A DNA stretch of 59,111 bases, counting the filler, from Jimgerdemannia flammicorona (taxonomy: Eukaryota), in NCBI GenBank assembly GCA_003990765.1. It is 3 parts of 3 records of this genome, joined end to end, with 100 filler letters (N's around TTAATTAATTAA, not from the genome) between each part and the next. Parts side by side here need not be neighbours in the genome. Positions count along the whole stretch, not along the records: positions 1 to 19,645 come from RBNJ01001888.1; positions 19,746 to 39,378 come from RBNJ01001889.1; 1 more part is not named here. One strand, written 5' to 3'. Positions 4,498 through 39,478 of the stretch are shown one piece after another. Numbering within the stretch: the first letter of the stretch is position 1; every line of letters begins with the position of its first letter. Both the position numbers and the translations under genes were made by a program. Below the pieces are notes generated by a model that saw nothing but the letters and a program-made list of their open reading frames with translations, searched no databases and was not told where the DNA came from.

Positions 4498-5649
4498 CGT
4501 TTCGCTTTGGTTTAGTTGGCGTATTTGTATATGAGAATTCGAAAGGCTCCGCAATTGCAAACTATCTCACATGCAAACGGAGACCGAGACAGCCATTGCA
4601 AACAAACTCACCCGCAAATAGAGGCCAAGGTAGCCATTGCAGACCCTCTCTATTGCAAATACGTTTTCGCTTAAACTCCGCCGCCTTCGGATATCTCGCG
4701 TGCTCCGTCAGTAGGCTCGATTCGACATATCCTCCAGATACGCCTCACCCTTGCCCTTGAGCTCAGGTGCCGAAATCGTTCACATCTGTGTTGTGGCACC
4801 TGCGGCATGGTCTTCTAAAAATTCCCTCGCAACCTATCAACTCGTTCTTAGTCACCTCCTTGTCGATGCGGTGTTCGGATGCCGCCGGGTGTAGGCTTCG
4901 CCACCCTTGAAAGCATAGGACCGGTTAAGTTTGTAGGCGAAGAGAATGTTGTCAGTTTTGGATCGGCCGTACGCTTTTCATTTGTCGTAAGGGCGCATGG
5001 TGAAATTCGGGTTGGAGCGAAGGGAAGTAGGAGAAGAAGATGCGGGAAGGTGCATATGCAACTCGACATCATCAGCTACGCGTAAAAGCGCGTTATTTGT
5101 ATTATCAATAAACGCTGCTCTTTGCCCCATCCTTCGAGATTCCTAACTATAAGGATAACCTAACTAATACCTTAATAGAAGTAAAGCGGCGAGCAAACTA
5201 TCACAAAGTAAACATCACTCACCTAACTGACAATCACGCAAGCTACAAGGTTGTCGATCAGGAGGTGAGTGAGTGACAAAAATACGTATGTGTGTGGTGC
5301 GGAATGGATAGGAGAAAGGTAAGCGCTTATGATGGAAGGCGATAGCATACAAGTACAAAGGCGGGATGGAAACCTATTGTTCGGCAAGAATCCACTTGAA
5401 TGAGAGATGTCAGGAAGCGGAAGGAGAAAGTGGATTGAGGCGATGTAGGTTGTAGAGTGTAGAGCGCGGATATTTAACGAGCGAAAGTCCGTCAGCTAGG
5501 AATACACGAAGAACAAACATGCTGCAGGTTTTCTCCATCCTCTCTCCGCCTCTTCCCCTCCCCTCCCCCCCTTTTATCTTCTTCCCCCACTATCCGGTCC
5601 ATTAAACTATTCGAGACTCACGCTAAAGCATGTCTGCGACCACCACTTC

Positions 5650-8460: not shown

Positions 8461-11400
8461 CGAAAAGAATGGCGAACCCGCGGTGACGAGGACGGGATAT
8501 GTCGTGAAGTCGGATTGGAACATGGTTGCGGAGAGGGGGTTTAGTTCTAAAGGCTGGGGGCAGAAAGGGTGTGGGGAAGGGGATATAGGTTATAATTCTT
8601 CCCACGAGCAGCCACAAAATTTTACAATGCAACCGGTCAATAAAGGGGGCGTAGATGTCGCGGCGACGAGGTGTCTGCTGTATGCAAATCTATTCATCCT
8701 TTTTGAACGGGGTTGAGCTGTACGAATTAAAAAAAGTAATGGCCCGCCATATTTATAAAGCGCCCTGGCCCGCCATGCCCTCCCGCTCCAGCGCTTGTGG
8801 GTCAGCGTCTTTATAGTGCCCGATGCCGCGACACTGTAAAGCTAAGAGGAAGACGCCAGCTTATCTCTACTAGTTTTGACCCCTGTGGCGTGCGGTTGTG
8901 GGTCAGAGGTGAGTGAACAGAAATTTCACGCCTACAGTCGAGACTGATTGGTGAACAAATGCCGTGATGTGAATCGTGATTTACGCATTTATTGATTCTG
9001 AAAGATCTATTTTAATATAGTGATATCAATAGATATATATAATACTTTATAAAAAATAAAAATAAAAATATTTATTATTTTGAGATATTTTTATAGTAGA
9101 ATGCTCGTTAATTATTAGAAACTAACACTAATTTATTCTAAAAAAAAACTCTAAATATATATCTATTTATTGTTTTAAATAAAGTTAAAATAGAAATATA
9201 TAAGTTTTTATCATAAGTATATTTTAATAAAAATAAAAAATATATTATAATTTTCTTAAAAAAAGTTTATATAAACTTTTACCTTTTTAATATAATATTA
9301 TAAATAAATTATATAATTAAAATTAATTTATAGTATTTTATATTTATAATATGTAATAATACAGTATATCTTAATTATAATATATTTTCATATTATTTTT
9401 TTAGTCTTTTTTTATTCTTTTTTAAATAGCCTATAATATTCTATATAATTTTTTTTTAAATACTTAGAAATTCTTTCTTAATACTAAGAGATTAATAGAA
9501 TATTATAAACTTATATTAGTATAATAAAACTATATACTAATAGAATTACTATATTATAAATAATTAATAGTAATTATTGACTCTAAGTTTGAAATTCTTA
9601 AGAAAGTGTTGAGTTTTAAAATTACCTATTATAGCAAGATCCAAGTATCACTTTTAGGTTCTTGTCTAGGTATAGAAGACTATGCTTATATCTCAAGTTG
9701 ATCAAACTTAGAATAATTAATAAATTAGATCTGAGGTTTTAATAAAAATACTACTTTATTTTTAAATTTAGAAAAGTAGAACTGAGGTTGCAATTTACTT
9801 AGTATAAAAAATATTTATATATTTCAAAGCTATGATCAAATATAGTATACTGGATATGTCTATATATATATATATTATTTTGAGTACTATGACTATTAGT
9901 CAGAAATTCTATAGGAAATTCTTATTGAAAATTTCAGTAGCTTATAATAATTCATTATATCCTTCCCTTCTTTACTTAAACCTACTCATTAGTTTCAGTA
10001 CTAAACTTTAAGTATTTATCAAACTAAAGGACAGTTTACTGAACTACTTAAAAGATAATTTTACTTTATTATTTATTACTCAAGTTGGTAATATTCTTAG
10101 AGAATACTCTACAGAGGTAGTCAAGAACTCAGGATTAGATGCAGAAGAGAATATAGAGTTTTTTGGCAACTATATAAGTATAGTGATTAATGAAAAGGTA
10201 GACTTATTATTTTATAGTACTGAGAGTAGCTTATTGATAGATAAAGTATTCTATCTTATAGTACTCTTTGAGTTCTTATTGATATCAGAATGTCTGGAAA
10301 TACTATATTCTTCTAAGATATTATTGGATTTTATTTGGATCTGGGTCTAGATATTTATATTGATAGATAGTAGTTTGGTAGAGTTTTATTACTCTAAGAA
10401 CTGTAGTAACAATCTTATTTTTGACTTAATCTCAGTATTATTACTAAGTACTTATATTAGAAGAAGTGGGTTATCTATATAAGATTATATCAGAATATTT
10501 ATACTTCTTTTACCAAGATTATTCAAAGATATAACTGTCTTTTGAAAATTCCATCAAAATTTCCATTATATCAAATATTTATATTAGATTACTGCCTCTT
10601 CTATATTTGGTAATAAGTAGTCTTCTTTTTCTCAAATAGTATTATATTTGAGATATTCTTTCCATTTTATAAAATAGTACTAGATAGACTAGGTAGCTCT
10701 TTTAAATTGATGATTTTTATAATCTGGAATATTCAACTTTATATTCTAGCTACTGATCAAATATTATTAGATCTGGGAGTAGTATAGTTCTTTCTTTAAG
10801 GGTGTTTGGAGTATATAGCTGAAGTTGAGATATATGAAACACTGGATAAATTCTTTCTAATATTACTAAGAGATCTAATTTATATATAACAGGTCTATAT
10901 TTTTTAAGAATCTTGAATAGTCTGATATAGTAGGGTCTACATTTCTTTTTTAGACCTATATTACTCAGAATTAGGTTCTAAGTACTGAGTAATACTTATT
11001 CTTCTATTTGTAAGTGACTTCTTTTCTATTCTTATCAGTATATATTATTTGTATTCTTTGTACTTCTATGGGAGTATCTCATACTTGCTAAATATTATCT
11101 TATATAATATCAGTAATTTCTTATACTGCTGATACTATAGTTTGAATAGTAACTATTAGAGTTTGTGGATATTATCCATAGTTCAAGTAGAATGGTATCA
11201 TTTTAGTACTTGTGCTTAGACTATTATTATAGACAAATTTGGCTAGAGTCAGCTTTTCATTCTAATCATTTTACTTATAGCTGTAGTAGATGCTGAGAAT
11301 CTATTTCAGGGTTTGATTAGTTCTTTCTATCTAGCCATCTGTTTGCAGATAGTATACTGTAGATATTTTCAGTTATATTCCTAAACTCTTGAAGAGTACT

Positions 11401-12659
11401 TACTAAAATTACTTATAAACTTTGTATCTTGATCTGAGATAATTGCTAATAGTAGTCTATAAAGACAAAATATGTTATCAATAAATAGCTGAGCTGTTTC
11501 TGATACTATTACCATAGTAGTTATTATAATAAAGTGGATCTGCTTGCTGAGGCAATTAATGCAAATAATGATTGCATCTCTTCTCTTCTTAGTTTTTGAT
11601 AACTGGACAATGAAGTCTATTCTAATATAGTTCTAATTTCAGATAAGAATTAGTAGCAATTATAGAGTACTAGCTGATACTTAATTACTGAACTTATATC
11701 TTTAACAAATATCATAAGATACAATATAGTTCTTAATATTAAATGTCATTTTGGGCCAGTAGAAGTCTTGGGCAATATATTGATATATCTTATCAAAACA
11801 TATATATCTAGTTATAAGTATATCATAAAGTTCTTGTAGGATTCATAAATAGATAGGAATGTCAGAGATCCAAATTCTTATATTGTCAAGGTACAGTATT
11901 TATTTTGAACTAATATATTCTTATAGACTTTGTTTATGATATTATTGTCTTCTTCAAGAATTTGTCTGGTGATTTCTTATATGTATATTAGTATTTTTTG
12001 ACATACTCTTTCTTGAGTTCTTTAAACAGACTGATGATAATAATGTTAATTGCTATAAGATTATCTTTTTGTGTACTTCAGGAGAGTGCATCAGCTATAT
12101 CATTCTTGGTTCTAGCAATGTACTTGATTTTGATGTCAAAGGGTATAAGAATCTATATCTATTGGGCTTATCTTTTAGTAATAATTGGCTGTATCTAGAT
12201 ATATCAGAGGCCTTGATAGTCAGTCTATATATAAGAGAGTTACTTTGTTAGAGTATTATTATATAGTTCTGAAAGGGTTTTCTGGAAGTTCTGGATATTC
12301 TGAACTATTTTCTTTAAGATTAAGATCATTTTCATATAGAGTATATCTTCTATACTTATTGATTTCAAGATTAGATTAATGTCTCAACCAAAGTCCTTTT
12401 TCAGACTTATTCTGGATGTTCAGAAAATTCTGTATTTCAGGAAGTTTAAGAAACTAAGACCAGCTTAGTTGAATTGACATATCACTGCAGATAATATCTA
12501 ATTAGGAAATTTCATAACTTGGTTAGAAGTAGGATCTAATGGGGTACAGATTTACTTAAGAGTAGTTTGTAGATTATTAAATAGATTTAATCACTATTCA
12601 TAATATTACTATATTAGGAGTAGTGTATAAAGAGATATTGTGAAAAAGTATTCAGAAGT

Positions 12660-12830
12660 TCTTATATTCAGATCTGGTACTTGTTTTGTCTAAATTTCTG
12701 AGGTCTGGGAGAGTGGGTATTTATACTAATAGGAGGCTATCTGGACTATACTAAATATGGATATAGTACTTAGTGCTTTGCTGAGTTAGAATACAATCAT
12801 ATAGTATAAGTGTGAACTGATATATCAAGA
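12660..12830 (-). repeat. LTR-like repeat, copy 1
   Basis: About 160 bp aligns by eye with 18525-18676. The minus strand has TATAAATA. Boundaries are approximate. Confidence 0.6.
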
Positions 12831-14118
12831 GATCATCTGACTAATGAGTCAATATATAGTTATATCATATAAAGTTAATTTAACTATACTAATAACTGCT
12901 AAGCTATATATAGATTTAGATTCTATCTGAATAGTCTTTGATGAGGTCACTATTAATGATATTATCTCTGATAAAGTAGTTATCTAAGAGCAGCTTTTAG
13001 ATTATATCTTCTTATTTATTTATATAGTAATAGGTTAGAACTATATCACTATTCTACAGAATAGCATTATCTGTATTATATATTGGATATAGTATTGATA
13101 TATAGAGAAGGAGTGTATCATCTTTGCTTTCATCAAATTTACTATCTGCATATCTTTAGTAAGTATATAATAGTGCTATAAGTTGCAGGGTTATAGTAAG
13201 CTAGTAACTATATTTCATTTCATTTATACTCTATTGGTTTAATCTCAAGGGTTGTCTGGAGATATAGATTATGTTCTCTGATATCTTCATTATAGTTGAA
13301 GTAATCAAATATAAATGTAGGTTAGTACTCATGCCAGTGGTCATTATCTCAATAAGTTTCATAGATAGTTATAAATTATTATAAGTTCATTAATAAGATT
13401 GATAGAGTAATCAGGGCTGGCAGAGAATCTTAACTAAAGGTCATATTATCAGAGATATCATTGTCTTCTTTTTTATCATTATCAAACTAGATTATATTAT
13501 AGATATGTATTCTTCATAGTATATCTAACTTAGGATATTTGCAGAATATGATTATCAGGATGAAAAAAGGATCTGTCTGTAGTTTGAATATACTTAATAT
13601 ACTTGTAGTTGAGTTCTTATACAATATTGTCAATTTGGCCATAAGACAGAATGGTAACCATTTCAGCAGTAGTAACTTGGAGATAGAGAATAAAGATGCT
13701 ATACTTATAAAAGAGTTCTTAGTATTTATAAGTGATGAGTTTCTGGTATTGAGATATTTAGATAATATCTCTATTATAGTAGTGTTCAACTATATCTTCT
13801 AGAAGGTAGCTAATCTAGTAGTAGCTTGAGATTTGTCCAATTCAGTAGACTTTGCTAAGTATGTTCAGGGCATTCCATTGGGCCACTATGAAGTAAAAAT
13901 GTACCAAGCTATAGATATTTATAAGAAGCAGGAGAGATGTAACTTGGTTGACAATAGTATTCCCAATGTTAGTACAGATATAGTTATAGATCTCAGTAAT
14001 CATATTTATATATATATTCAAGAATTATAGTTGTTTGTTTGATTTGTTGTAGTTCTGTATTTCAACATACCTGTGTTTTAAATATATACTTTTTGTTCTG
14101 AATGGTAAGGTTTTATTT

Positions 14119-15884
14119 TATTTTATTTTTTTTTATTTTATTTTATTTTTTTAACAGACTCATAGTCCTGCAGATTTTTATTGAAAGGGAACCTAGACTA
14201 TATAGGCCAAAACCCTCCCCCACTACCCATCAAACAATATCCCCTCATTAATCTAGGCTACTAAACTGTCCAGTAGTCCCACTGCTCCAGCTATGTCTGT
14301 CAAACACTAGCTATATTGACCCCAATGACATAGACTAGACTTGTCTGCTCACCAGGGCTAGATCATCATTTACATGCAAGAGCACACCTATGCATTGGAT
14401 CTAGCAGTACTGGGACTGAATAAAGAATAGCCCCCCAAACCCCAAAAGAAAGCCTGAGGTAAAGAAAAAACCCCCCAACCAATCAATAGAGAACAAAGTA
14501 GATTCAGAGCAGATGAATAAAGGACTTATATGCAGAACCTTCCTCAAAGAACTTATATATACATGGGCTAGGACCAGGAAAGACCCCACTCTCACTCTCT
14601 AAGTCTGTGGGCCTCAATCATATTGCCATATCAGCTCCTAGTTTCAGTTGGGTATAGCCAAATAAGGAAGGCCCCACTCTCCAAGCCTGCAGGCCTTGAT
14701 TGCATTGCCGCATCAGCTCCCAGTTCTAGTTGGGTACAGCTAGGACACCAGCCCCTATACCACCCCACCCCCTATCAGCCAATCAAAAGGTCCCACCAAA
14801 ATATTGTTCATCTTAGCCCCAATGACTGCCCCCAGCCTGGCATCCCACTGGTTCATCATTATTGCCCTTCCTCCTATCTGTGATGGCCATCTCCCCTCCC
14901 ATCCCAACATCACCCAAAAAACAGTCACCTATGTCAGAACTATGCTTGCCAGGAAGCTCGCCAAAGCCAGAGGGCCCCACCACAGATACTAAGGATCTGC
15001 AGGTAACCTATACTGAGCACTTGACACCCAAGGTCAGCCAACTCCCTATGTAGTCTGAGACACACCAAGACAGTACCTTGTTGGCAATAGCAAAAGGAAG
15101 AAGGTGCTGCACCAAAATGGATGCACTCCAGATGCAGCCAAAGGCACCAGAAACCATGAAAAAGTGGAGAAGACACTGATCCAACACCAATAAAGGGGTA
15201 ACTTATCACCATTGCCCTCCTCCCACCATACCTATACAAGGTAGAGGAGGTAATAATAGGTAGTGCTCCTAACGAGTCAATTTAATCCGGATTGGATTCG
15301 GATTGATTCGGATTGAATCCCATCCGAATCAACTTGGATGGGATTCGAATCAACCATTGTTTTGATTTCCAAATTAGATAATTAAATGTTTACATCAATA
15401 ACTCAATGAATAATCATCCAAATTTGATGATCTTGGTGTCATTTGAAAGCCCTCAATAAGGCCTATCTAATGATACCAAGAACATTGAAATCGGATCATG
15501 TGTTGCTGAGTTATGAAGGAAACCGTCTGAATCGCCGATTTTGGAAATTCTTCGATTTGCCAATTTTGGAAATTTCGTCAAATAGAACGTTTTCCTTAAT
15601 ATCTCGGCAACGTGTAATCCGAATTTAATGTTCTTGATATCATTAGGAAGGCCTTATTAAGGGCTTTCAAATGACACCAAGATCATCAAATTTGGATGAT
15701 TATTCATCGAGGTATTGATGTAAACATTTAATTGTCCAATTTGGAAATCAAAACAATGGTTGATTCGAATCCATCCGAATCCCATCCGGATTGACTCGTT
15801 CGGAACACTAATAATAGGGGAAAGGGGACTCAGAAGGTTGCCTACCAAACCTTGTGACTGGTAAGATAGCAGAGAAAGGAGCTC
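14119..15884 (-). mobile_element. Non-autonomous LINE-like retroelement (~1.2 kb without its MITE insert), complete copy
   Basis: 16-bp TSD TGGTAAGGTTTTATTT at 14103-14118 and 15885-15900. AATAAA plus an (AAAAT)n/poly(A) tail lie at the left end on the minus strand. No RT. Other copies at 18677-19395 and 36623-36786. Confidence 0.8.
15261..15810. mobile_element. hAT-family MITE, 550 bp
   Basis: TIRs TAGTGCTCCTAACGAGTCAAT and ATTGACTCGTTCGGAACACTA. 8-bp TSD ATAATAGG at 15253-15260 and 15811-15818. The paralogous host copy (~18735-18760) shows the empty site. CpGs are retained. Confidence 0.95.
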
Positions 15885-16871
15885 TGGTAAGGTTTTATTT
15901 ATGTAAATCTTATATTTTGTGACTTTGAGTTGACTCAGCTTAATGCTCTGTAACTTCAGTTTGACTCAGCTTTGTGATCTTATATGTGATTTTAGTAGCT
16001 TAGAGGTTGTGCACTTATACTATAAAATGAACTTTTTGCTAAAGAGGAAATATCTCTATGCTTGTAGAGATCAGATAATAGCAAAGAGTATCTTATCTTA
16101 TATTATATAATTTCTTTTATACTCATTGAGTTTCTGAGACAGATAGATAATAGAGTATTCATATTGAGTCAGAACTGCTCTAATGGTAATGTTTGAAGCA
16201 TTAGTAGTAACTATGAAGAGTCTAATTAGGTCAGGGCTGATCAGGATTAGTATATTTTTAGTATTCTCTTGAGAGTATTCATAACTATAGTATATGCTTC
16301 TATCTATTCTCTTTCAATTTTAGCTCCTTTTTTTGGCAAGACTTGTGAGTGGGGCAGCAATTGTAGAGAATCTTTGAAAAAATCTCCTGTAATATTCTAC
16401 CAGTTTATTGAATTCTTATAAAAACTTAAGGGTTCTCAGAATGGGTCAATTGCAGATTACTTGAGTCTTCTTGGGGTTAATAGCAATACTATTTTCTGAG
16501 ATAATATGGCCTAAGTATTTAATTTTCTTCTTGAAAAAGTGATATTTCTTTCTTTTTACTAAGAGCTTATATTTGTAGAGTATGTTAAATATCATTTATA
16601 GATATTATTGATTCAAGATATTACTTGTACTGTACACCAGGATATCATCTAGATAGACTAGGATAAATACTCCAAGATATTTTCAAAAGATGTCATTCAT
16701 CAGTATTTGAATGGATACTGATGCATTTGTGAGACTAAATGATATTATACAAAATTCATAATATTCAAATCTTATTTGAAAGACTGTCTTGGGAATATCT
16801 TCTTCTTTGATATATATTAGATAATATCTAGATATATGATTGATGAGTGAGAAGGTCTTGGTCTTATATAT

Positions 16872-17261
16872 ATACTTGGTCAGAGCAATCTTTATCTCTT
16901 TTATTTATATCAATTTCAGTTTGCAAACTCTTGAAGGATAAAGATGATGAAGAAGACAACTTTCAAGAATTACTTAAGGATTATAAAGATATCTTTCAGG
17001 AATCCCAAGAACTGTCACCAGTCTGAGCAGTAGAATATAGTATTGAAACCATTTCCAGTTCTGACCCCTTCTACTATAAAATCTACTGACTAGCTCAACC
17101 CAAGCTAAAGACTCTCATCAAACTTACCATATAGTGCACCAATCCTCTTTATTTATATGAATAATAAAAGTCTTTATTTGTATATTGATTATTAAGCACT
17201 AACAAAGATTTCAATCGAGAATTAATATGTACTTTTAAGAATTGATGAATTACTTGACTAT
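16872..17261 (+). mobile_element. Inverted N-terminal RT segment of a Ty3/gypsy element
   Basis: Plus strand reads FQELLKDYKDIF...PYSAPILF...YIDY*AL...LRIDELLD, which continues naturally into minus-strand IYKTKTFSLI at ~16870. Confidence 0.75.
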
Positions 17262-17299
17262 AAAGTCTACTCAGTTACTGTGAGCTTAAGAAAACTAAT

Positions 17300-18300
17300 C
17301 ATCCAATAGTTCTGCAGCTCTGTCCATATTGCTAAAGTCAGATCTAAGCTTAAGAATCTTCAATTCTATAATGATAAAAATGAAGAACTTCAAGCATTTA
17401 CTACAAGACTAAAACTCCTCCTAAATACAATAAGAGTAGAATACAGCTAACAAGAATAGACTATAAATAGAACCTGAGCTACCTACTTCTTTAATACTAT
17501 CTCTGAATAGTTATTAGAAAAAATTTATGAATAAGAACAACTCTATAATTACTTATATAAACAATAGTTCCTAGGATAAGCTATCACTAAAACATATACT
17601 ATTTTTATAACTTAAAGGCTAAGAGACAACAGAAGTAACAAAGAAGATATCAATTCAAGAAGAAGTGTAAACTTTAGAATAAATTCCCAAGACTATAAGA
17701 TAGATTAAAAAAACTATCTAATAAGGAAATAGAAGAACTCATAAAGAAAGAAGTATGTTTTCACTATAAAAAGAGAGAATATATACATATCTCATAAATA
17801 CTCTGATAAGAAGATCAATATAAATAAAGAACTATCCTCCTCATATACCATTACTATAATAGAAGATAATCTCAAAGAAATCTCTGAAAAAATCAAGATC
17901 AAGAGATTCAATATTGCTGTGAAAATCTCAGACAAAGTATATGAATCTAATACTGACTATAATCTCTACCTAACATAGAAGTAATCATCAAACCAGACAA
18001 GTAAGGGACTATTATCACAGGTATAGAATAGAAGTCTCTAAAGAAACCTATAACTATCTTATAGAAAAGAGTAGTCTGATCAAAGAAGAGAGACTCCATA
18101 TAGCTGAAGGAGTTATAGACCAAGAATTCAAAGATGAAATCAAGGTTCTGCTATATAATACTAGATAGAAGAAAGTTGAAATAACATGTAGAAAATGAAT
18201 CATCTAAGCCATTATTGAGATAATTAATAACCTTAAAGTTGAAGAAATAAATGAACCATTACTCTCTAATATAGGAGAAATTTTTTTCAGATTTATAGAA
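17300..18300 (+). mobile_element. Degenerate LTR-retroelement gag zinc knuckle fused in frame to a dUTPase
   Basis: CFHYKKREYIHISY (17756-17797) reverts by transitions to CX2CX4HX4C. NTDYNLY (17949) reverts to DAGYDLY. Then KSSL, GVIDQEFKDEIKVLL (18109-18153) and FRFIE (reverts to FGSTG, ~18286-18300). Confidence 0.8.
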
Positions 18301-18524
18301 AAGTATCTTGATAAGATCAAGAAAAAGACTAATATACTATAATATACAAAATAGTATATATAACCAGATGATATAAATACTATAGTTACTTTATTGTTAT
18401 AGAAATTTTATAAATAACCAGATAGCTAAAAAGAGAAATAAATAGTTAATATCTACTAGACAGTAGATATCCACTAGATAGCTAATATCTACTAGATAGT
18501 AAATTATCTAATTCTTATCTATAC

Positions 18525-18676
18525 TCTTGTCTGAGTTTCTGAGGTCTGAGAGAGGGAATATTTATACTAATAGGAGGCTATCTAGACTAGGCTAAATATG
18601 AGTATAGCACTTTAGTACTTGATGAGTCAGAATATAGTCACATTGTACAAAGTATGAACTAATATATTAAGAGATG
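18525..18676 (-). repeat. LTR-like repeat, copy 2, cut by the retroelement at 18677
   Basis: Matches 12660-12830. Confidence 0.6.
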
Positions 18677-19395
18677 TCCCCTTTCTCTGCTATCTTACCA
18701 GTCACAAGATTTGGTAAATGACCTTCTGAGTCTCCTTTTCTCTATTATTACTCCTCTACCTTAGGTTGGTTTGCTGTACCTGTATAGACATGGTGGGAGG
18801 AGGGTAATGGTGATGAGTTGCCTCTTTATCAGTGTCAGATCAATGTCTTCTCTACTTTTTCATGGATTCTGGTATCTTCAGCTATATCTGGGGTGTACCC
18901 ATTTTGGTGCAGCATCTTCTTCCTTTTGCCATTATCAATAAGGTATTGTCTTGATACATTACAGATTATATAGAGAGTCGGCCAACCTTGGGCCTTAAGT
19001 ACCTAGTATAGATTACCTACAGGTCCTCAGTACCTGTGGTGGGGCCCTCTGGCTTTGGTGAGCTTTTCAGCAAGTATGGTTCTAGTGTAGGTGACTGTTT
19101 TTCAGATGTTGTTGGAATGGGAGAGAAGATGGCCATTATAGATAGGAGAAAGGATAATTATAATGAACCAGTAGAGTGCCAGACTGAGAGTGGTCATTGA
19201 GGCTAGAGCAGGTACTGCTTTAGTGGGGCCTTTTGATTGATATAGAGCAGTTAGATAGTAGGTATCACTTTCAGCTTCTTTTGGCAATTCAGCAGGTTGG
19301 ACCCCAGTCATTGGGGGAGATCAGGGGGGCCAAGGTTACCTATTTCAGGTATCTTGGCTACACTTAACTAGAACTGAGAGCTGACATAGCAATGT
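18677..19395 (+). mobile_element. Non-autonomous LINE-like element, copy 2 (5' part), interrupted by an L1-like LINE
   Basis: Reverse-complement match to ~14700-15884 without the MITE; begins CCCCTTTCTCTGC. Confidence 0.85.
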
Positions 19396-19407
19396 TATTA
19401 ACATACG

Positions 19408-19645
19408 GATCTTTCTCCGGTAACATTCAGGTTACACAAGACTCAGACAACACTTTCTACAATGTTTTTGGTGTCCGACGACTAACAACATGGATGGCAA
19501 CGATCGATCTGGTGAGCGTACTGGCCAGGGGGGTGGCGGCGCCTTTGGCTGGCAGCAGGTGGGGAGGAGGGGAGATGGTTTGGGGATGCCAGGGGCCTCG
19601 ATGGCTAGCCGGGGCCCCAGCGGCGGAGGGAGGGGAGGTCTGAGG
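19408..19645 (+). mobile_element. L1-like LINE 5' end (copy 1), running into an assembly gap
   Basis: Matches 29804 onward; ORF1 ATG at 19490. Confidence 0.85.
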
Positions 19646-19745
19646 NNNNNNNNNNNNNNNNNNNNNNNNNNNNNNNNNNNNNNNNNNNNTTAATTAATTA
19701 ANNNNNNNNNNNNNNNNNNNNNNNNNNNNNNNNNNNNNNNNNNNN
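19646..19745. other. Assembly gap with artificial TTAATTAATTAA linker
   Basis: N-runs flank a six-frame-stop linker; same structure as 39379-39478. Confidence 0.97.
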
Positions 19746-22088
19746 GACCCAACAGTCAAAGCATTCCAACCAGGCCTCCTCCACACTCCCCATACCAGCC
19801 TACTCCCCCAATGTCCATCGTCCCCAATGTCCCCCATCCCTTTTCTAACCAGGATGCCAACCTGCCCTGTCCATATAGCTGCCCCACCCCATTCCCGAGT
19901 CCAGTCCAGTAGGTCCACATCTGGCTCATACCACACATCCTGCAATAGGAAGAGATCTGCCTCCAGACCCTTCAACCAGCTAAAAATGTTTCTATGCCGT
20001 TTTGCCCCCCTTAGCCCATTGACATTCAAAGAAAAGATTCTAGTTGTACTGTTCATATTGAATAATTTTGGTAGGGATATCACAATCTAGAACTCCATGC
20101 TCCTCCTGTCCCCCTCCATATCCATGCGTCGCTCAGCCTCCAACTCGTCCTCCATCACCTCCTGCACATCCAGTGCCTCCAAGATTTCCTGGCACTCTGC
20201 TCCATCAACTACTTCGAATTCGGTCCGATACTCCCTGCACACTACTCCCCACTTCTCCAACCCTTTCTTCGAGTTCCACAGGTAAGCTGCTCGATCATTC
20301 GCAATCACTCGAAGTTCCTCCTCTCGCTGATCATCGACTTGATACTCCACCGACTCCAGGAGCACCGCCAGAATTTCATTCCGGACCTTCATTGGCATCT
20401 TCTCACCACGCAGAATTTCCTCCCAGTGCCTATCACTCATAACCCAGAAGTCCTCACCTCCCAGCTCCTCAGCTGCCACCCCTTCCAGAGTCTTCCACAG
20501 CAACTTCTCCTCCTCCACCACTGCCTCGGCACTCTGGGCACTCCCTTCCCCCCCAACCACTGGGTCCCCCACTGCGATCCTCCTTCCCGACTCATCCCAC
20601 TCCTCCTCCAGGACATCAAGAAGCTCCTCCTCACCTCCGACTCCTCCCGGGACCCCGTATTGTGGCTGTACTTCTATGCTCATCTCAGCGTCCTCCACCC
20701 CACTGCCCTGCCCTCCTTCCCCATGGACCTCTTGGGCCACCCTTTGATCTACTCTGGGCTCCCCAGCCCAGTCACTTTCCCTCGATCCCCCTCCACTTCC
20801 TCCCTCTCCATCTTCCACCACGCCTCCTCCCAATTTCTCCAACAGCTCCCTCTGAATACGCCTCCCCTGCATCTTCTCCCAAGTTCCTCAATCCATCCTG
20901 ATCTTCTTCCCTTCTACAATTTCCACCACCATCTTGGCCTCATACTCCTTTCAAGCCAATCGTCTCCTCTCGACAGCTCCCGTCAGATCCTCAAGAGCCT
21001 CCAGCAAATTCTCCTCTTCCTCCAGTGTCCCTTTCACCTGAGAGACCCTGCACTCAGCCTGTCCCCACTTCAGCATCGCCGGCCAGTCCCTCGCCTTCCC
21101 CATGTTCTCCCGACTAAACAAGCGTACTCTTACATCAACGTCTCCAGTCCTAAGTTCTGTACCCTCCCAGACTTTGAACCCGATATCAATGACATTCCCA
21201 TACTCCTTTACCACCTCCACAATCAACTCCCTAGCCCTCTCCCATGACACCATAGGAAGATCCAGCACTGTCAACTGCACCACTCTTGGGTCCCAGTGCA
21301 TGCACCTTGCCATAGGAACTACCACTCCACCCACTACTACCCCTTTCTCCATAGCCTCCAGCATCGACACCTCTTCTTCAAACCCAACCTCAATCCCTTC
21401 CTTCCCCTTCATGAACTTGACCGTAGCTGCCCCCTTCACCTCCTGCACCACCAGCCCCAGGATCATCCTCACAGTCACTGCCAAGCCTCAGAAACACAAT
21501 GTGACCACGAATTCTGACCTCGACTTTTTGAGTAACGGTGCCGACACCATGCCTGTCACTCCATCAGCCAGGTCCCCGGGCCTCGTGCCCTCCTTCTGAC
21601 CAGATCCGCCAACCACCGTCACATCTGGATTTTTCTCCAGATTCCCCGTCACAGCCCCATCAGCAGTCACATCTCCAACCCCTACTCCCCCTCCCCCCAT
21701 ACCGACTGAGGCTCCCATGGGGGATCCTCCCTGCCCTCCTTCTGAACCCAGTATCACCTTCCCCAGTCCCAACCAACCATCCAGCCCTGCGGCCATCTTC
21801 CCCATCCTGACCTTGTTGGCAAAGGTCGCCCTCCCCCCACCTCTCTGCCTCAGTCTACCTCTCCCTCCACCTCCAGCGCCACCACCCACCACAGACAGCC
21901 CTGGAATCTCCAAACCATCTCCTCGTTTCCTCCCAACCTGCTGCCAGTCGAAGGCCCGGCTGCCCCCCTGGCCGACCTGCCCACCAGTTTGCTTGTTGCT
22001 CGCCATGTTGATAGTAGCTTTTCACCAAAAACTTCGCAGAAAGTGTTGTCCAAATCTTGTGTCACCTGAATGTTACTAGTGAAAGGTG
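19746..22088 (-). mobile_element. L1-like LINE (copy 2): 5' UTR, ORF1 (22006-20087, ~639 codons, two nonsense changes) and start of the ORF2 APE endonuclease (ATG 20056)
   Basis: Three track ORFs lie in one frame, broken by TGA codons. ORF2 reads IFSLNVNGL...ADLFLLQD. The 5' end CACCTTTC is at 22088. Confidence 0.92.
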
Positions 22089-23849
22089 CTGACCAGAATT
22101 CGATATCAGATAATCCTTGCAGATTATGCTGCTGCTATCCGAGATCAAGTAGCTGAAGCAACCTTCATGAAAGGAGTCCATCCAGAAAAAGCCATGGCCA
22201 TCTGCTCATCACCAGTAATTCTGGATCTACCACAGAAGGTCACCTATGCTCAGCAATACTAGATAGCCAGACATCCACAAGACCATACAATGGAAAGGGT
22301 CACAGGAGTCAGAATCGAGGCACCCAAGGCAACTAGTGTGATCCCTACCACAATGATCAATCGAAATACACCTCAGCCAAAAGTTACAGAGCAGCAAAAG
22401 AACAGTGACCCTATGGAGGAACTTGCCAAAAGGTTTGCCAAAATGACTGCCCACCTGGGAGATGTAGTAAAGGAAATTTGAGAAAGAGACCGCCACTCTG
22501 TCCAGAAGTTCGCCACCACCTCAGACAAGAAGAAAGGCACCTGCTATACTTGTGGAGAAGAAGGCCACTACTCTTATGAATGCATGAGCAAAACCAAGCA
22601 CAAGGCTCAACCAAAGCAATGCTATATGAAACAAAGAGCAGGCCAATATAATTACCTTTGAGGAGATTGGAGATTCTGATGAAGAAGAATGGGAGGCCTA
22701 TCCTGCTCAGACCACCAAGAAGAATGCTTGCAAAGTGCCCTACAAGAGACCACCAGGAAGACCCAAGAAGAACCCAGTGGAAAAGCAGATGGAAACTGCC
22801 ACAGAAAGCCAAGCTGAAGAGATGGACCAAGATATAGAGCTGGAGCAAGCAGTTCAAGATATCATCCGAGGAACCACTCCAGCCAGTGAAGGAGAAAAAG
22901 AAAAGAAGCTTTGCAAGACCAAGACCTTCAAGTATGATATCTTCAAGGACCTCAGCGAACAAAAGGTCAATGCAACCTTTGGTCAGCTTGCAGAAATCCC
23001 AACATTCAGACAGCAAATGAGGTTTGGACTTGCTGAAACAACTAAGAAACAGGGATGGAAGATAACTGAGGCCAATAATATTCAAGAGGACTCAGGAGAA
23101 GAAAGTGAGGACAATCACAAAACCTCTGCATATGCAACATGCCAAATTGAAGATAGAATCTTTGAGGCCATCATTGATACAGGAGCAGGAGGATATCTCC
23201 TCAGCAAGAAGGCAGCAGACTGCCTAGGTTGGGATGTGGAAGAAGCAACTAAGCTAGTGTTCATCACAGCCGATGGCACAAGAGCCACACCTCTGGGAAA
23301 GATCCAAGACATTCCCATCAAGATTGGAGGAGCAACCATCTCAGTAAATGTAATTGTAACCAACACCACCAACTATGACATCCTCATTGGCAATCAATGG
23401 CTTCACAAAGCCAAGGCAGTAATCGATCTCAATGCCCAGAAGATACAGATCACCTACCAGGGACAGAAGATACAAATTCCCATCAATGTTAACAAAGGAG
23501 TCCTGCTCGACATGGAGGAAGAAGAGAGCAAACAAGAGGAAGCTTATATGGTGACTACTCCAAAGAAGAAGAAAGTTGGATGGATGAGTGAAGAAGAATG
23601 GTGCAAGAAGATGGCAAAAGGCTATGCACCACAAGGAGTCTGTCCTCATGGAATCAGGATGTACTATATGGAGCATATCAATGATTGCTACCAGTACACC
23701 ATCAGAATCAGGAAGATCCACCAGGAAAGAAGGCAGAAAGCTCTCAAAAAGCAGATCAGAGAAGAAGAGAAGGAGGAAGATGATGAACCACCAGCTCTCC
23801 TGGAGGACAGTGATGATGAAAAAGAAATCAAGGTCACCCTGATGCAGTC

Positions 23850-24227
23850 TTGCCAGAATACAAGTCAGAAAATGCAGCTGGAATGGACATCACTACAGTA
23901 GAAGAGACTATACTAGAACCCCAGACAACCACCCTACTTGCAACCAGATTGGAGATGACCATCCCAAAGGATCATGTCGGGATTCTCAAGACAAGAAGCA
24001 GCCTGGCTAGAAGCAAAATTACAATTGAAGGAGGAGTCATTGATTCAGACTACACTGGAGAAATTCTACTCATTGCTAGGAATCACAATCCTACAATCCC
24101 ATTTCCAGTCAAGAAGAAGGACCAATTGGCGCAAATGTTGATCTTTCTGATCCTACAACCAAAGATCATAGAAGTTAAGAAGCTGGAGGAAATAAGAAGA
24201 GGAAAGAAAGGATTTGGATCCACAGGA
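23850..24227 (+). CDS. Trimeric dUTPase domain within the retrotransposon pol, in frame with RT
   Basis: All five motifs are present: AGMD, RSSL, GVIDSDYTGEI, LAQ, RGKKGFGSTG. Confidence 0.95.
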
Positions 24228-26922
24228 AGAGGAGTATTTGCCAACATCAAGATCACTGAACTTGAGCATAAGAAGGAGGAAAACACAAGCAAGCACAGCT
24301 ACACCATCAGAAATGAATTTCCACTCAAGAAAGAACTCAAGAAAATACTCCATGAATTTGAAGATGTCCTTGCCACAGATTTCAAGGATATCAAAGGAAA
24401 GACCCCACACTACTATCATGAAGTAGATACTGGAGACACTGAACCAATTTATCAGAAGGCAAGACCTGTCCTGCCAGCCTACCAAGAATGGCTCAGAGAA
24501 GAAATCAAGCAGATGGAAGAAGCTGGCATCATTAAAGAAGCCAGTAGCCCCTGGTCCTCACCTGTTATACTAGCCTCAAAAAAAGGAAGTAAGCCTGGAG
24601 AATTCGCCCCAAGACTCTGTATCAACTACAGAAAACTCAACATGGTTACCAAGAAGGATTGCCAACCACTGCCCCTCATCAATGACATCCTTATAATACT
24701 GGGAGACAAAGCACAATACTACAGCACCTTGGACTTATACTCAGAATTCCACCAAATCGGACTCACAGATATGGCAAGTGAAAAGTCAGCTTTCATCACT
24801 CCAGATAGAACCTATATCTACCTACGAATGCCATTTGGAATGTGCAATGCACCAGCAAGTTTCCAGTGAATGATGAATAAAATCTTCCACTATGACATGG
24901 GAAGATGGATAATGGTCTACATCAATGATGTAATCATCTACAGCAAGACACCTGAGGAATATCTGCAGCACATACAGCAGATAATGGAGAGACTAAGACA
25001 ACATGGCCTTTACATCAAACCCAAGAAGTGCAAGTTCGCAGAAATCGAGATCTCCTATCTTGGCCACATCATCAACCGAGATGGAACATATACAGACCCC
25101 CTCAAGATACAAGCAGTGGCAGCATACCCAAGACCCACCACTGTTATGGAAGCCCAAGCCTTCATGGGACTCACCTCCTATTATCGCAGATTTATTAGAG
25201 AATTTTCTAATATTGCAGGACCAATCTACAAACTTAACAAGAAGGATACCAAGTTTCAGTAGACTGGCAAACAACAAAAAGCATTTGATGAACTCAAGGT
25301 CAGACTGACCCAGGTATCTATCCTCAGAAGACCTGACTGGACTCTAGAATTCATCCTATAGACTGATGCAAGTGCACAAGGACTAGGAGCAGTCTTAGCT
25401 CAAAAGAAAGATAAAGTGGAGTATGTCATTGCATACCTCAGCCGCAGAACCCGAGGAGCTGAAAAAGAATATGAATCCTACAAGTTAGAATGCCTTGCAG
25501 TCATCTAGACCATAGAAAAGTTCCACTACTACTTGGCTGGAAGATACTTCACCATCCAAACAGACCACTCAGCTCTCACCTGACTACTGGCAACTGGACA
25601 ACCCAAAGGAATCTATGCCAGATGGATAATGAAGTTGCAAACTTATGATGTAACTATCATACACCACTCTGGAAGAACCAATGCTAATACCGACACCCTC
25701 TCACGGACACCCTGAAAGACCCCACCCCAACAAAATCATCATGAATAAGAAGCTCTACTACAGAATTATCACATACCTGAGACAGTGAAAGATGCCCCAA
25801 ATCTGGAAGAATGGACACAAACGATTATCAACAGAACATGGAAACAATTCGAAACTGATGGAGAAACACTGAAGAAAGGAAAACTACTAGTCATACCAGA
25901 ACATAAGAAGGAACAAGCAATGAAATCAGTACACAAACTTGGCCATCTAGGAGGAACAAATACATACAACAAGACAAGAAGAACAATATGGTGGCCAGGG
26001 ATGGAGGAAGATATCAGACAATTTGTCAAGACCTGTGACAAATGCCAGAAACAGAAACAAGATCAATGAAATCAAGCCTCAGGATCAGCACACATAGAAT
26101 CAGTACCATTTGCCCACATTGCAATGGATGTAATTAGCCCTCTACCCTTGACTTTGACTGGCAACTGATACATCATCGTTATTGTAGACCTTTTTACAAA
26201 ATGGATAGAAGCAGGACCCCTTATAGAAGCCAATGCACAGTCAATTGCTGATTTCTTCCACAAGGAAATCATCTGCCAGTTCAAAACTCCAACACAAGTA
26301 ACTACAGATAGAGGAATAGAATTTGTGAATCAGTTCTTCGAAGTTCTCTACAAGAAGTACAAGATCCAGCATATTTGGACTACAGCATATCACTCTCAAG
26401 GAAATGGACAAGTAGAAAGGACCAAAAAAACCCTCAAGAATGTTATTGCCAAGATAGGCGATAACTACGAGAACTGGGATCACTATCTACCAATAGCATT
26501 ATCTGCCCTCTGAGATATCCGATCACAAAGTACCCACTTTACCCCTCGAGAAATGCTGTTCGGAGAAGAATGTTCTCAGGGAACCCTGTCATCCAATGGA
26601 GATGCTGTATGGAAACATGTGGACATGGAAATATAGAGACTACACCAAATCAGAAAGAAGGCTGAGGATTACATAATGAAGGCACAGACACTACAATGGA
26701 GAAATGTGGAAAAGACCCACAAACCCTTGGAGATTATCAAGATAGGAGACAAAGTCCTGGTGTATCGGAATATGGTTGAAGCTTCATGGTCATGAAAACT
26801 GGAGCCCAAGTGGAAAGGACCTTACCTTGTGCAAGATATAAAAGAAACCACCTTTTGGCTACGAAAACCCTCAGGCACAATAATCCCCACCACCATTCAT
26901 CGAAACTGACTCAAGAAATATT

Positions 26923-27382
26923 ATGGCCAGTAACACAAGTACTATGATGGCACTCAAGATCACTAGTGCTGCCCAAAGGGCCATTAAGAGACAATGGTGC
27001 ACCACCAAGCCCCTGACCATAGAGGAGTCTTATGACAGTATCCAAAGTATCGTGCAGACTCATCTCTCTTGGATCTCACACTTCAAGGCCTATTAGCATT
27101 GGAATGAATTCCAAGAGTACTTCAAACTTGGCCAAGTACTCAACCAAGACCCAGAAATGACCAAAGAATTGAATCACAGAATGCCAGCTCTCCTATTCCC
27201 AGATCACCATTGTCAAAAGAATCCACAAGCTATTCCGAGAGGATGAATCAGCACTAGCCCACCTGCGAGGAGTGACTCCCTCAGACTTCGACCAAGTCAG
27301 GCAATACCAGTGGAAAACAGTGATACAACAAATCATGCAATATAAGACCATATAGACCATTGAAGCTTGGAAGTTTGAATAG
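26923..27382 (+). pseudogene. Extra ORF (ORF3, ~150 codons) between integrase and PPT
   Basis: ATG at 26923 overlaps the end of the integrase frame (TAA 26931-26933). Codon style matches pol. Two TAGs revert by single transitions, and one frameshift lies near 27190. Confidence 0.6.
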
Positions 27383-27419
27383 ATGCTTTAGAGACGAGAT
27401 CATCTATTCAGGAGGAAGT

Positions 27420-27886
27420 TGTGATGGTATAGCCAGATTCGGAAGAAGGAAATAGGGAATAGATACTTGATCGCACCCAGTCCCAAAGTAGTATAGCCAC
27501 ATAGTTAACAGTCCTCGATTTCGCAACTTGCTAAATATTTTGCAAAGTGCAAGATCGAGCTCTCTGATATAGTATAGTATTTCGCAACTGGCGAAACATT
27601 TTGCAAAGTGTTAAATGACTCATAACTTAGCCATGTAACTCAGTAACCATCTCATAGTTAGCAAACTTGTATAAATAACCCAGTATCTTTAAGTGAATAA
27701 ACCTCAGATCGAAATAGTTCAAAGCAAAGAGATAGTAAAGGAACTAGTAAGCCTGTGGGCAGATATACCTCAAACTCACCCACCCTCTCCTGCAACTTCA
27801 AGAGACTCTGTGAGAGTCAGAACAGTCAAGTTTTCAAGATACAGAAATCCGATGTACTTTCAAGAGTAAGTGTCCACTATATTACA
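27420..27886 (+). repeat. 3' LTR (467 bp) of the dUTPase gypsy element
   Basis: Termini TGTGAT...ATTACA follow the PPT. TATAAATA and AATAAA at ~27670-27700. The hAT sequence resumes immediately after. Confidence 0.85.
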
Positions 27887-30800
27887 ATATATATCCAAAT
27901 TGTCACTGCATTTAGCATATACCTCTTAGTGGTAATAAGATTTATCTAATCAGAGAATATCTGTTTGACAGAAGTATTGGTGGCAGGAATTACCATATAG
28001 TCTCAAGCCATACCATATAGGCTGGAGAAGTCTATTTGATGTAGCTGCAGCCATATACCCCAGTGAGTAGAGTGGTGGTTAGAACAGTAGTTAGGTTAGT
28101 AAATTAAATTGGCCCAACACAACCAATCACCTATCTGAAAACTCACCTTTCACCAATTGAGCACCTCTATGCCCTCCAGCAGGATCATACAGTCACTGAT
28201 AAGATAAATAGTGAGTTTATTTATTGACAGTAGCTCTTCTACTAATTGCTCTCTCTTTCTCTTTCTGCTGAAGTAAATGTGGGACAGGAGGGATCTCTCA
28301 GTATATTCATCCAGACTTCAGCTAGAATCTTGCAGCAGTATATAGTTTTTCTGATATGTTTTAATTATAGCCCACTTAGTTCCCTCAATATAGTAATGCT
28401 CTCAGCTCTTATCTTTACAGTATTGTAGCTTTAAGTATAGGTCCAGCACTGTTTGGAGAAAGAGAGTGAGTTTTGTGGGAGTTTCTCTGTTTTGGAAGAG
28501 ACAATGGCCATATATTGATATACCTATACTGATTGAGTATATGGCAGCATCTGTTTTGAAGTAGTATTTTCTGAGCTTACTTAGAGCAACCTCCACAGTA
28601 TCTCTCTGATCTGAGCATAACTATAAATCACCACTACTCTCTAGTCTATCCTCAAGCTTATCCTCTAGCCAGTTAATCAAAAAGTTGTATACTGGTATTG
28701 TAGAACTTATTGTCAGAGTCATTTATTTGACTATATTCTTTATACAATCATCAAAATACTGTCAGTTATATATGGGAGGTAAAATATTATACAGAGGTAG
28801 ACAAAATAAGTTTAGGGTTAGAGTAATCATTACTTACTTCCGAAAATCTAATAACATTCCTAAGTATATGTCACTCACTTTCATCTGTAGCCTTACTCTA
28901 TATTACCTTGTCAATAGCAACCATTGAATCTATTGGCCTATTTTGTTGTTTTTTTTTTTTTTTAAAAAAAAAAGAAACTTCAATTATCTGAAAGAAGTTG
29001 CTTCAGCCAATTGAAAAAAAGAATGCATACCACAGCAAACTCCAACACATGCTGGATCATTGCAAATATTGAGTTCCAATATATACAGATATCCAATATC
29101 TGTTCTTTTGGGGCTAAACTGATTGCCCTACACTATATAGTAAATTTGTCTCATTGTTGTAGAGATGCAGACCAACATAATCAGTTTGTACAGCTTGGAA
29201 ACTATACTCAGAGCCTCTCCTCTCTCAGATGTTTGGTCTATGTGCATAAGATAGTTCTGAATAGTGAGGTTCAGTATGTGTGCCTGGTATTATATATGGT
29301 AGCTTTCTATATAGAAGACCAAATTTTTCTATTTTGAGGCTGTCTATTATAACTTAGAAAATATTGAGTTGTTTGTAACATTATCTATCATAATGGCCAA
29401 AATCTGTACTTGAAATATTTGGTCAGCAAATTTATATGAAAATAAATAACCAATAAAATCTGTTTTGTTTTTAAACCTCTCTCAAAATACCAATCTGATG
29501 GCAAGCCCCCCTTTTTTATCTTGGTTGTGATACCAAGCTCTCAGATATAACTAATAAAAGCATCTGCAATATTTTCTCCAGAATGAGGGTTAGCAAGTTT
29601 GATGAAGTCAAGAATGAGAGATTTAAGCTGCCAATCAAAGTTAATTCAATTACTAGTAATGCCCAGAAATGAAATTATATTGAGGGATGTCCATGTGTTG
29701 ATTATAAATGAAATTTTGCCTATTAAATTCTGCTTATTGAATATGTATAAGATTAAATTGGTGAGCTCTTTTATAAATATATATATATATATAATTCAGC
29801 TTGCACCTTTCACCAGTAACATTCAGGTGACACAAGACTCAGACAACACTTTTTATAATGTTTTAGGTGTCTGATGACTAACAACACGGATGGCAATAAT
29901 CAAACTGGTGAGCATACTGGCCAGGGGGGTAACAGCATCTTTGGCTGGCAACAGGTGGGGAGGAGGGGAGATGGTTTAGGGATGCCAGGGGCCTCGATGA
30001 CAAGCCGAGGCCCTGGTGGTAGAGGGAGGGGCAGTCTGAGGCAGAGAGGTGGGGAGAGGTTGATCTTTGCTGACAAGATCAGAATGGGGAAGATGGCCTC
30101 TGGTCTAGATAATTGGCTGGGCCTAGGGAAGGCATCAACAGCTGCTGCTGGGGGACTGGGAGGTGTGCCCAGGGGAGCTTCTGATGGTAGGGAAGGAGCA
30201 GGAGTAGGGGCTGGAGATATGACTATTGATGGGGCTATGACTGGGGATCTGGCAAAAAATCCAGATGTGACAGTAGTTGGCAATTCAGGACAAGGGGTGG
30301 GCACAAGGCATAGGGACCTGGCAGATGGGGTGACTGGAATAGTGTTGGCCCCATTACTCAAGAAGTCAAGGTCAGAATTCGCAGTCACAATGTGTTTCCG
30401 GGGCTTGGCAGTAATGACAAGGATGATCTTGGGGCTGGTGGTACAGGAGGCAAAGGGAGCAGCATTGGTGAAGTTCTTAAAGGGGAAGGAAGGGTTTGAG
30501 GTGGGGTTCAAGGAGAAAGATGCCCTGCTGGCAGCCTTGGAGAAAGAGGTGACAGTTGGTGGAGTTGTGGTCCCCATGATCAGGTGTATGTACTGGAACC
30601 CTTGGGTGGTACAGTTGACAGTGTTGGATCTCCCTATGGTGTCGAAGGAGAGGATCAGAGAGTTGGTTGTGGAGGTGATCAAGGAGTATGGATAGATTGT
30701 GGACATTGGGTTCAAGGTATGGGAGGGTACCAAGCTCTAGACTGGTGATGTCGATGTCAGAGTGAGGCTGACTGGAAAGGAGAATATAGAGAAGTCGAGG

Positions 30801-39378: not shown

Positions 39379-39478
39379 NNNNNNNNNNNNNNNNNNNNNN
39401 NNNNNNNNNNNNNNNNNNNNNNTTAATTAATTAANNNNNNNNNNNNNNNNNNNNNNNNNNNNNNNNNNNNNNNNNNNN
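39379..39478. other. Assembly gap with artificial TTAATTAATTAA linker
   Basis: N-runs with the linker. Confidence 0.97.

Follow-up and report, generated by a model that had tools for sequence, protein, structure and literature searches.

Betaretroviruses encode a dUTPase between nucleocapsid and protease. In fungi, the presence of dUTPase domains at varied positions within the Ty3/gypsy elements of a single species has already been published for Postia placenta, whose Ty3 elements carry the domain at the Pol N-terminus, between the protease (PR) and the reverse transcriptase (RT), or at the C-terminus (PMC2864245). The same account describes "several" such elements, proposes their independent acquisition of dUTPase and a role in non-dividing cells, calls the role of the enzyme in fungal retrotransposons unclear, and refers to earlier cases in Phanerochaete and Tuber. 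The occurrence of dUTPase in fungal chromoviruses has also been mentioned (PMC2774666), and in bdelloid rotifers three of four lineages, namely Juno, Vesta and TelKA, are described with dUTPase between PR and RT, in a source that calls the domain "rarely found in retrotransposons" (PMC5408684). An Entomophthora preprint additionally reports the enrichment of PF00692 together with retroviral protease domains (10.1101/2023.09.13.557621). In this article, two dUTPase-bearing Ty3/gypsy elements, A and B, are examined in a 59,111-nucleotide stretch of DNA (the window) from Jimgerdemannia flammicorona (GCA_003990765.1), a genome of 231 Mb in 35,354 contigs. In domain orders, dUT stands for dUTPase, IN for integrase and CH for a Cys/His module; L-numbers are locus labels.

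The initial annotation of the window had recognized two retroelement families with dUTPases at different positions, about 6 kb apart, and had proposed repeated capture of the enzyme under selection against uracil in cDNA. The reading favored here, to which a probability of about 0.65 is assigned, is that the window holds one dead copy from each of two Ty3/gypsy lineages with an old, inherited dUTPase, between which parts were exchanged, and that their C-to-T scarring was a later and separate process.

Two element lineages and the census of dUTPase

The distinction between two retroelement families is upheld by the RT tree, in which A, its sister family A2, C and D form one group and B/B2 is separate, and the positions of their dUTPases differ. 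The window copy of family A ends at about 18340, directly after the dUTPase and ahead of any protease; in blastn comparisons with 49 family-A loci, most alignments begin at 17220-17259 and finish at 18300-18346. As annotated, its dUTPase directly follows the gag knuckle, both in the window and in the fuller relatives L046 (with a recognizable knuckle remnant), L075 and L061, in which the order is gag knuckle-dUT-PR-RT and in which the Ty3-type PR and RT, missing from the truncated window copy, are present downstream of gag. Three stops and frameshifts near 17970 and 18025 interrupt the window dUTPase, whose longest stop-free piece matches PF00692 weakly (19.5 bits, cut-off 22 bits); it matches L061, an A2 copy with less decay, at 42% and is matched by 150/150 scored genome candidates (2,254 first-look candidates). 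Family A groups with A2 in the RT tree (93.7/95), together with one environmental chromodomain element. A2 and D carry what we take, from its motif, to be a chromodomain-like tail (L061, L137, L151, L144), and on this tail and the RT grouping family A is classed as a putative chromovirus-type Ty3. Scrambled family-A pieces in both orientations occupy window positions 16020-17260, directly upstream of the dUTPase A fragment.

Family B shows the gag-PR-RT-RNase H-integrase order of Ty3/gypsy elements (Metaviridae) in Pfam matches and translation, and the placement of its dUTPase after the protease is confirmed by the Pfam order PF13975, PF00692, RVT_1. The window copy matches L153 at 89.9% over 5.8 kb and L127 at 86.6%; no 5' long terminal repeat (LTR) was seen for it, and stops as well as indels (near 22615 and 23835) interrupt it, with a frame-shifting 16-nucleotide deletion in the dUTPase near the second site, relative to L153. 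The RT tree places B apart from the chromoviral group, the A2 chromodomain query matched none of the B or B2 elements in the sampled stretches, and the window integrase frame stops soon after the GPY motif; family B is assigned to the non-chromoviral Ty3 elements. Among 30 fetched family-B loci, dUTPase precedes RT in all and PR lies upstream as well in 28, while 150/150 scored genome candidates match dUTPase B at 87-100% (7,675 first-look candidates). The possibility that a +1 frameshift is programmed at CTT-TGA, downstream of the B knuckle, was considered and rejected, since CTTCGAG stands there in 11 of the 25 copies aligned and most copies are in frame. At window positions 25715-25760 a stop closes the RNase H frame and the integrase starts just after it in a different frame. 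The stretch of about 500 nucleotides separating the integrase from the LTR (26930-27420) contains a broken frame of about 150 codons (frame 1), possibly an accessory gene.

The contrast in motif 3 between GVIDQEF in A (at 18109) and GVIDSDY in B (at 24033) is real at the level of lineages but had been overstated, as the E varies among copies of A: its codon in 30 family-A loci is GAA in 15, GGA in nine and unreadable in six, and the less-decayed A2 relatives L169 and L170 read GVVDQGF, so the E of GVIDQEF most likely arose by a G-to-A change after insertion.

Across the genome, a PF00692 profile search gave 8,265 first-look candidates, and a census of dUTPase-bearing LTR families was run on 40 stretches taken at even spacing, each some 10 kb long and together 399,829 bases, all from contigs of at least 9.8 kb. 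The dUTPase profile matched this sample 21 times (one match weak), a density of about one per 19 kb of the sampled large contigs. A dUTPase stood beside the protease in 18/18 sampled Ty3 elements with a protease in view, belonging to six families, in the order PR-dUT-RT in ten (three B, six B2, one E) and dUT-PR in eight (four A2, three D, one C2). Six Ty3 pieces were too cut or decayed to score (L116, the second in L127, L135, the second in L139 and two in L145), and three dUTPase matches had no protease in view (L128, L136, L141). Because the census queries came from dUTPase-bearing families, a Pfam control was run on 139 uncovered open reading frames of at least 130 amino acids, yielding no dUTPase and five further RT matches, of which the three that were read are presumably non-LTR, judging by their motifs. 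Ty1/copia elements are abundant (1,188 first-look candidates), and dUTPase was found inside the copia region in 0/9 fetched stretches (two had matches in flanking Ty3 DNA) and in 0/4 sampled copia pieces with protease in view; the elements resembling long interspersed nuclear elements (LINE-like) that were sampled likewise carried none. The genome thus adds scale and contrast, with dUTPase in every evaluable sampled Ty3 and none in copia or LINE-like elements.

Loci L160-L168 represent a young Ty1/copia family with open frames of up to 1,522 codons, a Thr/Gly-rich N-terminus and no dUTPase, and family E has, at L142:4071-5392, a PR-to-dUT spacer of about 440 codons with other Cys/His motifs.

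The shared Cys/His module and the origin of the dUTPases

Among the best 120 of 1,121 profile matches are many environmental polyproteins, with dUTPase at four positions: before PR, between PR and RT, between RNase H and integrase, and after the chromodomain. A polyprotein of Phlebia brevispora has the order dUT-PR-RT-chromodomain, and a single-sequence search with dUTPase B against longer proteins gave one match. Since environmental polyproteins, Phlebia and, by its published description, Postia carry dUTPase at varied positions, the trait would be old and widespread, belonging to the Ty3 lineages rather than having been recently picked up from this host, and the differing positions would reflect old acquisitions together with the exchange of parts between Ty3 lineages.

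Evidence for such exchange comes from a 48-residue CH module lying between dUTPase and PR in A, A2, D, B and B2. The A2 and window modules are 48% identical (BLASTP E 2e-17) and align with a score of 140, the maximum in 5,000 shuffles being 56. The module profile is found in 29/30 B loci, 13/30 decayed A loci and 0/28 C loci, in 17/20 sampled elements whose dUTPase is clear, and in 4/421 proteins compared, all four with the RSS-type dUTPase described below. It is absent from the B-like protein P0276, in which dUTPase precedes RT, and its motif was not detected in the decayed long-spacer copy L142. Between chromoviral and non-chromoviral elements the module is 46-48% identical, as against 20-24% for PR, 38-43% for RT and 28-33% for IN; A2 and D are lower, at 35%, although all these module identities rest on 46 positions and are imprecise. 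The order is mirrored, being dUT-CH-PR in A, A2 and D and PR-CH-dUT in B and B2, so more than one rearrangement step is needed, and because the distribution is patchy, exchange between lineages fits better than inheritance. The module therefore suggests that lineages traded parts beside the dUTPase, and says nothing for a trade of the dUTPase itself.

As to its nature, the module reached the cut-off of no Pfam family (best E 0.046), an Atlas search returned nothing useful (best 0.85), the single match from a metagenome scan is ascribed to chance, its surroundings lacking retroelement domains, and viral contigs gave no match. Its structure is predicted with confidence (pLDDT of 89.8), and structure comparison brought up no clear counterpart (E 4.7 at best in Foldseek, Z 3.2 at best in VIA), which argues neither for a new fold nor for zinc binding; the module is possibly zinc-binding. 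A literature search, with most subscription papers outside its scope, returned no report of this module nor of dUTPase-bearing Ty3 elements in Endogonales.

The dUTPase sequences themselves show at least two types. A signature RSS(L)A...GGV[IV]D..[YF]TGEI is common to A2, B, B2 and D, whereas RSG...GAGVID..[YF]RG characterizes C, the host enzyme and most environmental elements. The C dUTPase, host-like in motifs 2-3 (RSG...GAGVID), groups with environmental chromovirus dUTPases (93.6/99 in one tree, 98 in another), so at least two dUTPase lineages coexist. All dUTPase trees have 134-142 columns, long branches and poor resolution. The first mixture-model tree, in which reference row P0163 was mis-cut (it was left out of later trees), does not join A to B, all four of A, B, C and D branching from an open fork; the later one, with closer relatives added, likewise has A and B apart, with open forks, and puts B with other proteins. 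In approximately unbiased (AU) tests on two trees, neither a single A+B clade (p 0.75 and 0.55) nor a single A+B+C+D clade (p 0.46 and 0.13) was rejected; family E was left out of both trees as a long branch, and out of the RT tree because its RT piece comprises 60 amino acids. A test for one clade of A and B thus leaves it unrejected, while the free trees disagree and the RT lineages differ. One free dUTPase tree (that with p-AU 0.55 for A+B) joins B and D (99.7/100) and A, B and D (88/65). This B+D clade was set aside, as it is absent from three other trees, B joining P0235 in two trees or stand-alone dUTPases (95) in the later mixture-model tree; an RT-based AU test of B+D gave no rejection (p-AU 0.18).

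These data bear directly on an alternative which we regard as possible but tentative: that one dUTPase lineage, together with the CH module, spread among A, A2, D, B and B2 through recombination of co-packaged RNAs and was re-ordered around PR. The common RSS-type signature, the restriction of the module to such dUTPases among the proteins compared with its absence from C, and the one tree uniting A, B and D are all as expected under sideways spread, but the B+D grouping is unstable, the mirrored order cannot come from a single cut-and-paste, the dUTPase identities among A2, D and B (34-45%) are no higher than those to C (33-46%), and long branches and short alignments limit every tree. A broader version, in which dUTPase is near obligatory for Ty3/gypsy elements in this genome and one type with the module swept sideways across lineages, re-ordered around PR, appears a little more doubtful still. 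If true, an accessory enzyme would have swept through the retrotransposon lineages of one genome, and since copia and LINE-like elements do without it, the case would serve as a natural test of the need of LTR elements for dUTPase.

Host genes, function of the dUTPase and C-to-T change

The host UNG, dUTPase and deaminase genes were inspected by exon-wise searches, whose counts are lower bounds. An intact three-intron DUT gene lies on contig C33350 (L113). Its protein type has its best match in a Jimgerdemannia flammicorona protein (96%), followed by Mucoromycota proteins (70-78%), which marks the host as an Endogonales-like fungus, and it groups with Mucoromycota DUTs in trees; since the element dUTPases reach no more than 32-44% identity to it, they would not derive from this host's gene. 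An intronless copy on C6287 (L082/L112), from which the three introns are missing, is a retrocopy in which 13/13 substitutions are CpG transitions, several of them in catalytic motifs. Loss of the host dUTPase as a driver was rejected, the damaged top PF00692 match on C6287 being this retrocopy of the intact gene. Exons of two distinct UNG-like genes were observed at L171 (C5369) and L172 (C1630), alongside one exon of a gene we take to be TDG/MUG-like. PF00383 (deaminase) gave five matches at four loci and PF00145 (cytosine methyltransferase) four matches, with exons present. These searches, which did not extend to an APOBEC-specific family, gave no sign that the host lacks a dUTPase or has an expanded deaminase set.

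Against this background, the explanation offered in the initial annotation, in which A and B captured dUTPase independently under host selection against uracil in cDNA, through the dUTP pool or a uracil-based defense, seems unlikely. Dense occurrence in six Ty3 families, the coexistence of a host-like C type, the separation of A and B in mixture-model trees, the module-free P0276 (by which the module may be younger than the B dUTPase), two UNG-like loci and a DUT retrocopy demonstrating that capture material does arise here would all suit it. On the other side stand the unrejected A+B clade, the dUTPase-free copia and LINE-like elements of the same host, the intact DUT gene, the few deaminase matches and the distance of the element dUTPases from the host gene. 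Repeated capture by A and B is accordingly not supported, in view of the unrejected clade and the shared module, nor is it refuted, as mixture-model trees split the two. A uracil pressure specific to this host, for which the frequency of the enzyme in Ty3 elements speaks, is weakly supported at best: copia and LINE-like elements go without dUTPase, the DUT gene is intact and distant from the element enzymes, and dUTPase-bearing Ty3 polyproteins are also common in environmental data.

The element dUTPases are assigned by profile to the trimeric dUTPase family PF00692, with scores of 93.5 (B), 119.9 (A2), 130.6 (C), 125.9 (D) and 81.2 (B2) bits against the cut-off of 22. Of the 28 readable B copies, 26 retain motif 1, 27 motif 2 and 28 motif 5, the corresponding counts in 28 C copies being 28, 28 and 25, and the motif 4 arginine is retained in just 7/28 B copies. 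Between families, dN/dS is 0.13-0.19 for dUTPase and 0.10-0.14 for RT, rough values because dS approaches saturation and CpG decay inflates it, and the domain was under purifying selection while the families diverged. The knuckle-to-PR spacing is in frame in 17/21 B copies and the PR-to-dUT spacing in 19/21, and L170 (A2) and L092 (C) contain gag-dUT-PR-RT in a single frame, point stops aside; on conceptual translation, each lineage encodes dUTPase in the same frame as gag, PR and RT. The protease would free the dUTPase inside the particle, where it would hydrolyze dUTP during reverse transcription, so that RT would put less uracil into the cDNA, and such uracil-poor cDNA would escape attack by host UNG. 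A lowering of dUTP in the particle during reverse transcription is the most likely role by analogy with non-primate lentiviruses, whose dUTPase is described as important for non-dividing cells (PMC4531489). That the dUTPase is instead a neutral passenger or non-catalytic spacer, common through the expansion of a few carrier families, is very improbable: the 18 sampled elements do represent six families only, hence not 18 independent events, and copia thrives without the enzyme, but motifs 1, 2 and 5 are kept in nearly all readable B and C copies and the dUTPase dN/dS is close to that of RT.

The heavy C-to-T change noted earlier is evident in pairwise differences, which are unpolarized counts, and the annotation was right to caution that deamination is not undone by dUTPase. 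Pairwise C/T difference is highest at CpG (0.63 in B, 0.56 in C), with 0.11-0.16 at CpA and CpC; in family A, CpG is nearly gone (observed/expected 0.07) and the values are 0.68 at CpA and 0.66 at CpC. Stretches filled with repeats have a CpG observed/expected of 0.01-0.35, the others one of about 1. The strands are alike (A CpA 0.69/0.67, B CpG 0.69/0.56, copia CpG 0.26/0.23), and on the sense strand C/T is at least as high as G/A in A, B, C and copia, so that the strand-biased sense G-to-A mark of APOBEC-like or uracil editing was not observed in these four. Being strand-symmetric, led by CpG and present also in copia and the DUT retrocopy, the scars would be post-insertion and chromosomal; and since deamination of 5-methylcytosine yields thymine and not uracil (PMC13297926), they are silent on uracil in cDNA. 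The scarring is most likely a separate, later process of methylcytosine deamination on chromosomal DNA, for which the presence of cytosine methyltransferase exons also speaks.

Several points weigh against the favored reading of old inheritance, exchange of parts and later scarring. The environmental polyproteins mostly have no host label; the frequency of dUTPase in the sampled Ty3 elements exceeds the published accounts consulted, for which reason a host effect is kept in play; the dN/dS estimates are rough, as stated; dUTP hydrolysis and repeat methylation are predictions from sequence; and the non-CpG change in family A, which plain CpG methylation leaves unexplained, may be similar to repeat-induced point mutation.

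Window layout and comparison with known systems

The window consists of three contigs joined by 100-nucleotide spacers at 19646-19745 and 39379-39478, the first made up of 44 N, a 12-nucleotide stop linker and 44 N. Contig C1888 supplies positions 1-19645, whereas dUTPase B lies on C1889. The 6-kb distance between the two dUTPases is therefore an artefact of joined contigs, without biological meaning, and physical linkage of elements A and B is rejected. Coordinates of the features are collected in Table 1.

Table 1. Features of elements A and B and of the contig junction, in window coordinates.
Feature	Position	Strand	Evidence
Family A fragment, decayed chromovirus-type Ty3 (putative), gag through dUTPase	17220..18340	+	Contig C1888, blastn
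Gag CCHC knuckle, family A, decayed	17756..17797 (approx.)	+	Aligns with knuckle region of family-A loci
dUTPase A, dead	17892..18300	+	PF00692 E 8.8e-4 on 47-amino-acid piece
Artificial spacer C1888/C1889	19646..19745	.	N runs and contig mapping
Family B, non-chromoviral Ty3/gypsy (assigned), internal region and 3' LTR	22092..27887	+	Contig C1889, L153 similarity
Gag CCHC knuckle, family B	22542..22583	+	PF00098 E 5e-7
Aspartyl protease, family B	23110..23470	+	PF13975 E 1.5e-11
48-residue Cys/His module between PR and dUT	23587..23730	+	BLASTP, A2 versus window
dUTPase B	23820..24230	+	PF00692 E 1.1e-26 (translated piece 23820-24866)
RT and RNase H, in-frame stops	24399..25715	+	PF00078 E 8.4e-10 and 1.3e-11
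Integrase	25749..26930	+	PF17921 E 4.5e-20, PF00665 E 1.5e-11
3' LTR (part), family B	27419..27887	+	90% over 469 nucleotides to L153 stretch upstream of gag

Elsewhere in the window, a repeat of about 2.3 kb, skewed towards purines and depleted in CpG, occurs in three copies at 19746-22089, 29803-32121 and 39479-41516 that are 71-76% alike; one of them adjoins the start of element B, and the open reading frames tested in the repeat gave no Pfam match. Two fold-back inverted repeats were also observed, one at 15322-15791 (205-nucleotide arms, 60 nucleotides apart, 87%) and one at 41512-41791 (140-nucleotide arms, zero gap, 91%).

Relative to described systems, retroviral dUTPases resemble those of A, A2, C and D in their knuckle-dUTPase-protease order. 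The proposed function resembles the lentiviral model, in which the enzyme prevents uracil from entering cDNA where the cell has little dUTPase of its own (PMC4531489); unlike in retroviruses, no env was seen here, the RT and integrase are of Ty3 type, and a single reading frame is used. Juno, Vesta and TelKA share the PR-dUT-RT order in several lineages of one host, and Juno has an extra zinc knuckle next to its dUTPase; in contrast to family B, this knuckle follows the dUTPase, and the host is an animal (PMC5408684). Tmt1 of Tuber melanosporum and the Metaviridae of Phanerochaete chrysosporium are likewise fungal Ty3 elements with dUTPase (PMC2864245, PMC5408684, PMC2774666), given in PMC5408684 with the PR-dUT-RT order of family B, a likeness drawn from that description, and they belong to other phyla. 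PosPlaTy3-3, -4 and -5 are the nearest parallel, being several Ty3/gypsy families of one fungal genome with varied dUTPase position (PMC2864245). Postia, in contrast, is a basidiomycete with "several" such elements, whereas in this member of the Mucoromycota every evaluable sampled Ty3 carries dUTPase, one of the lineages is non-chromoviral, and a Cys/His module is shared. The interest that remains beyond the published cases lies in the near-universal presence of dUTPase in sampled Ty3 elements as against none in copia and LINE-like elements, and in a shared module that hints at an exchange of parts between distant lineages.

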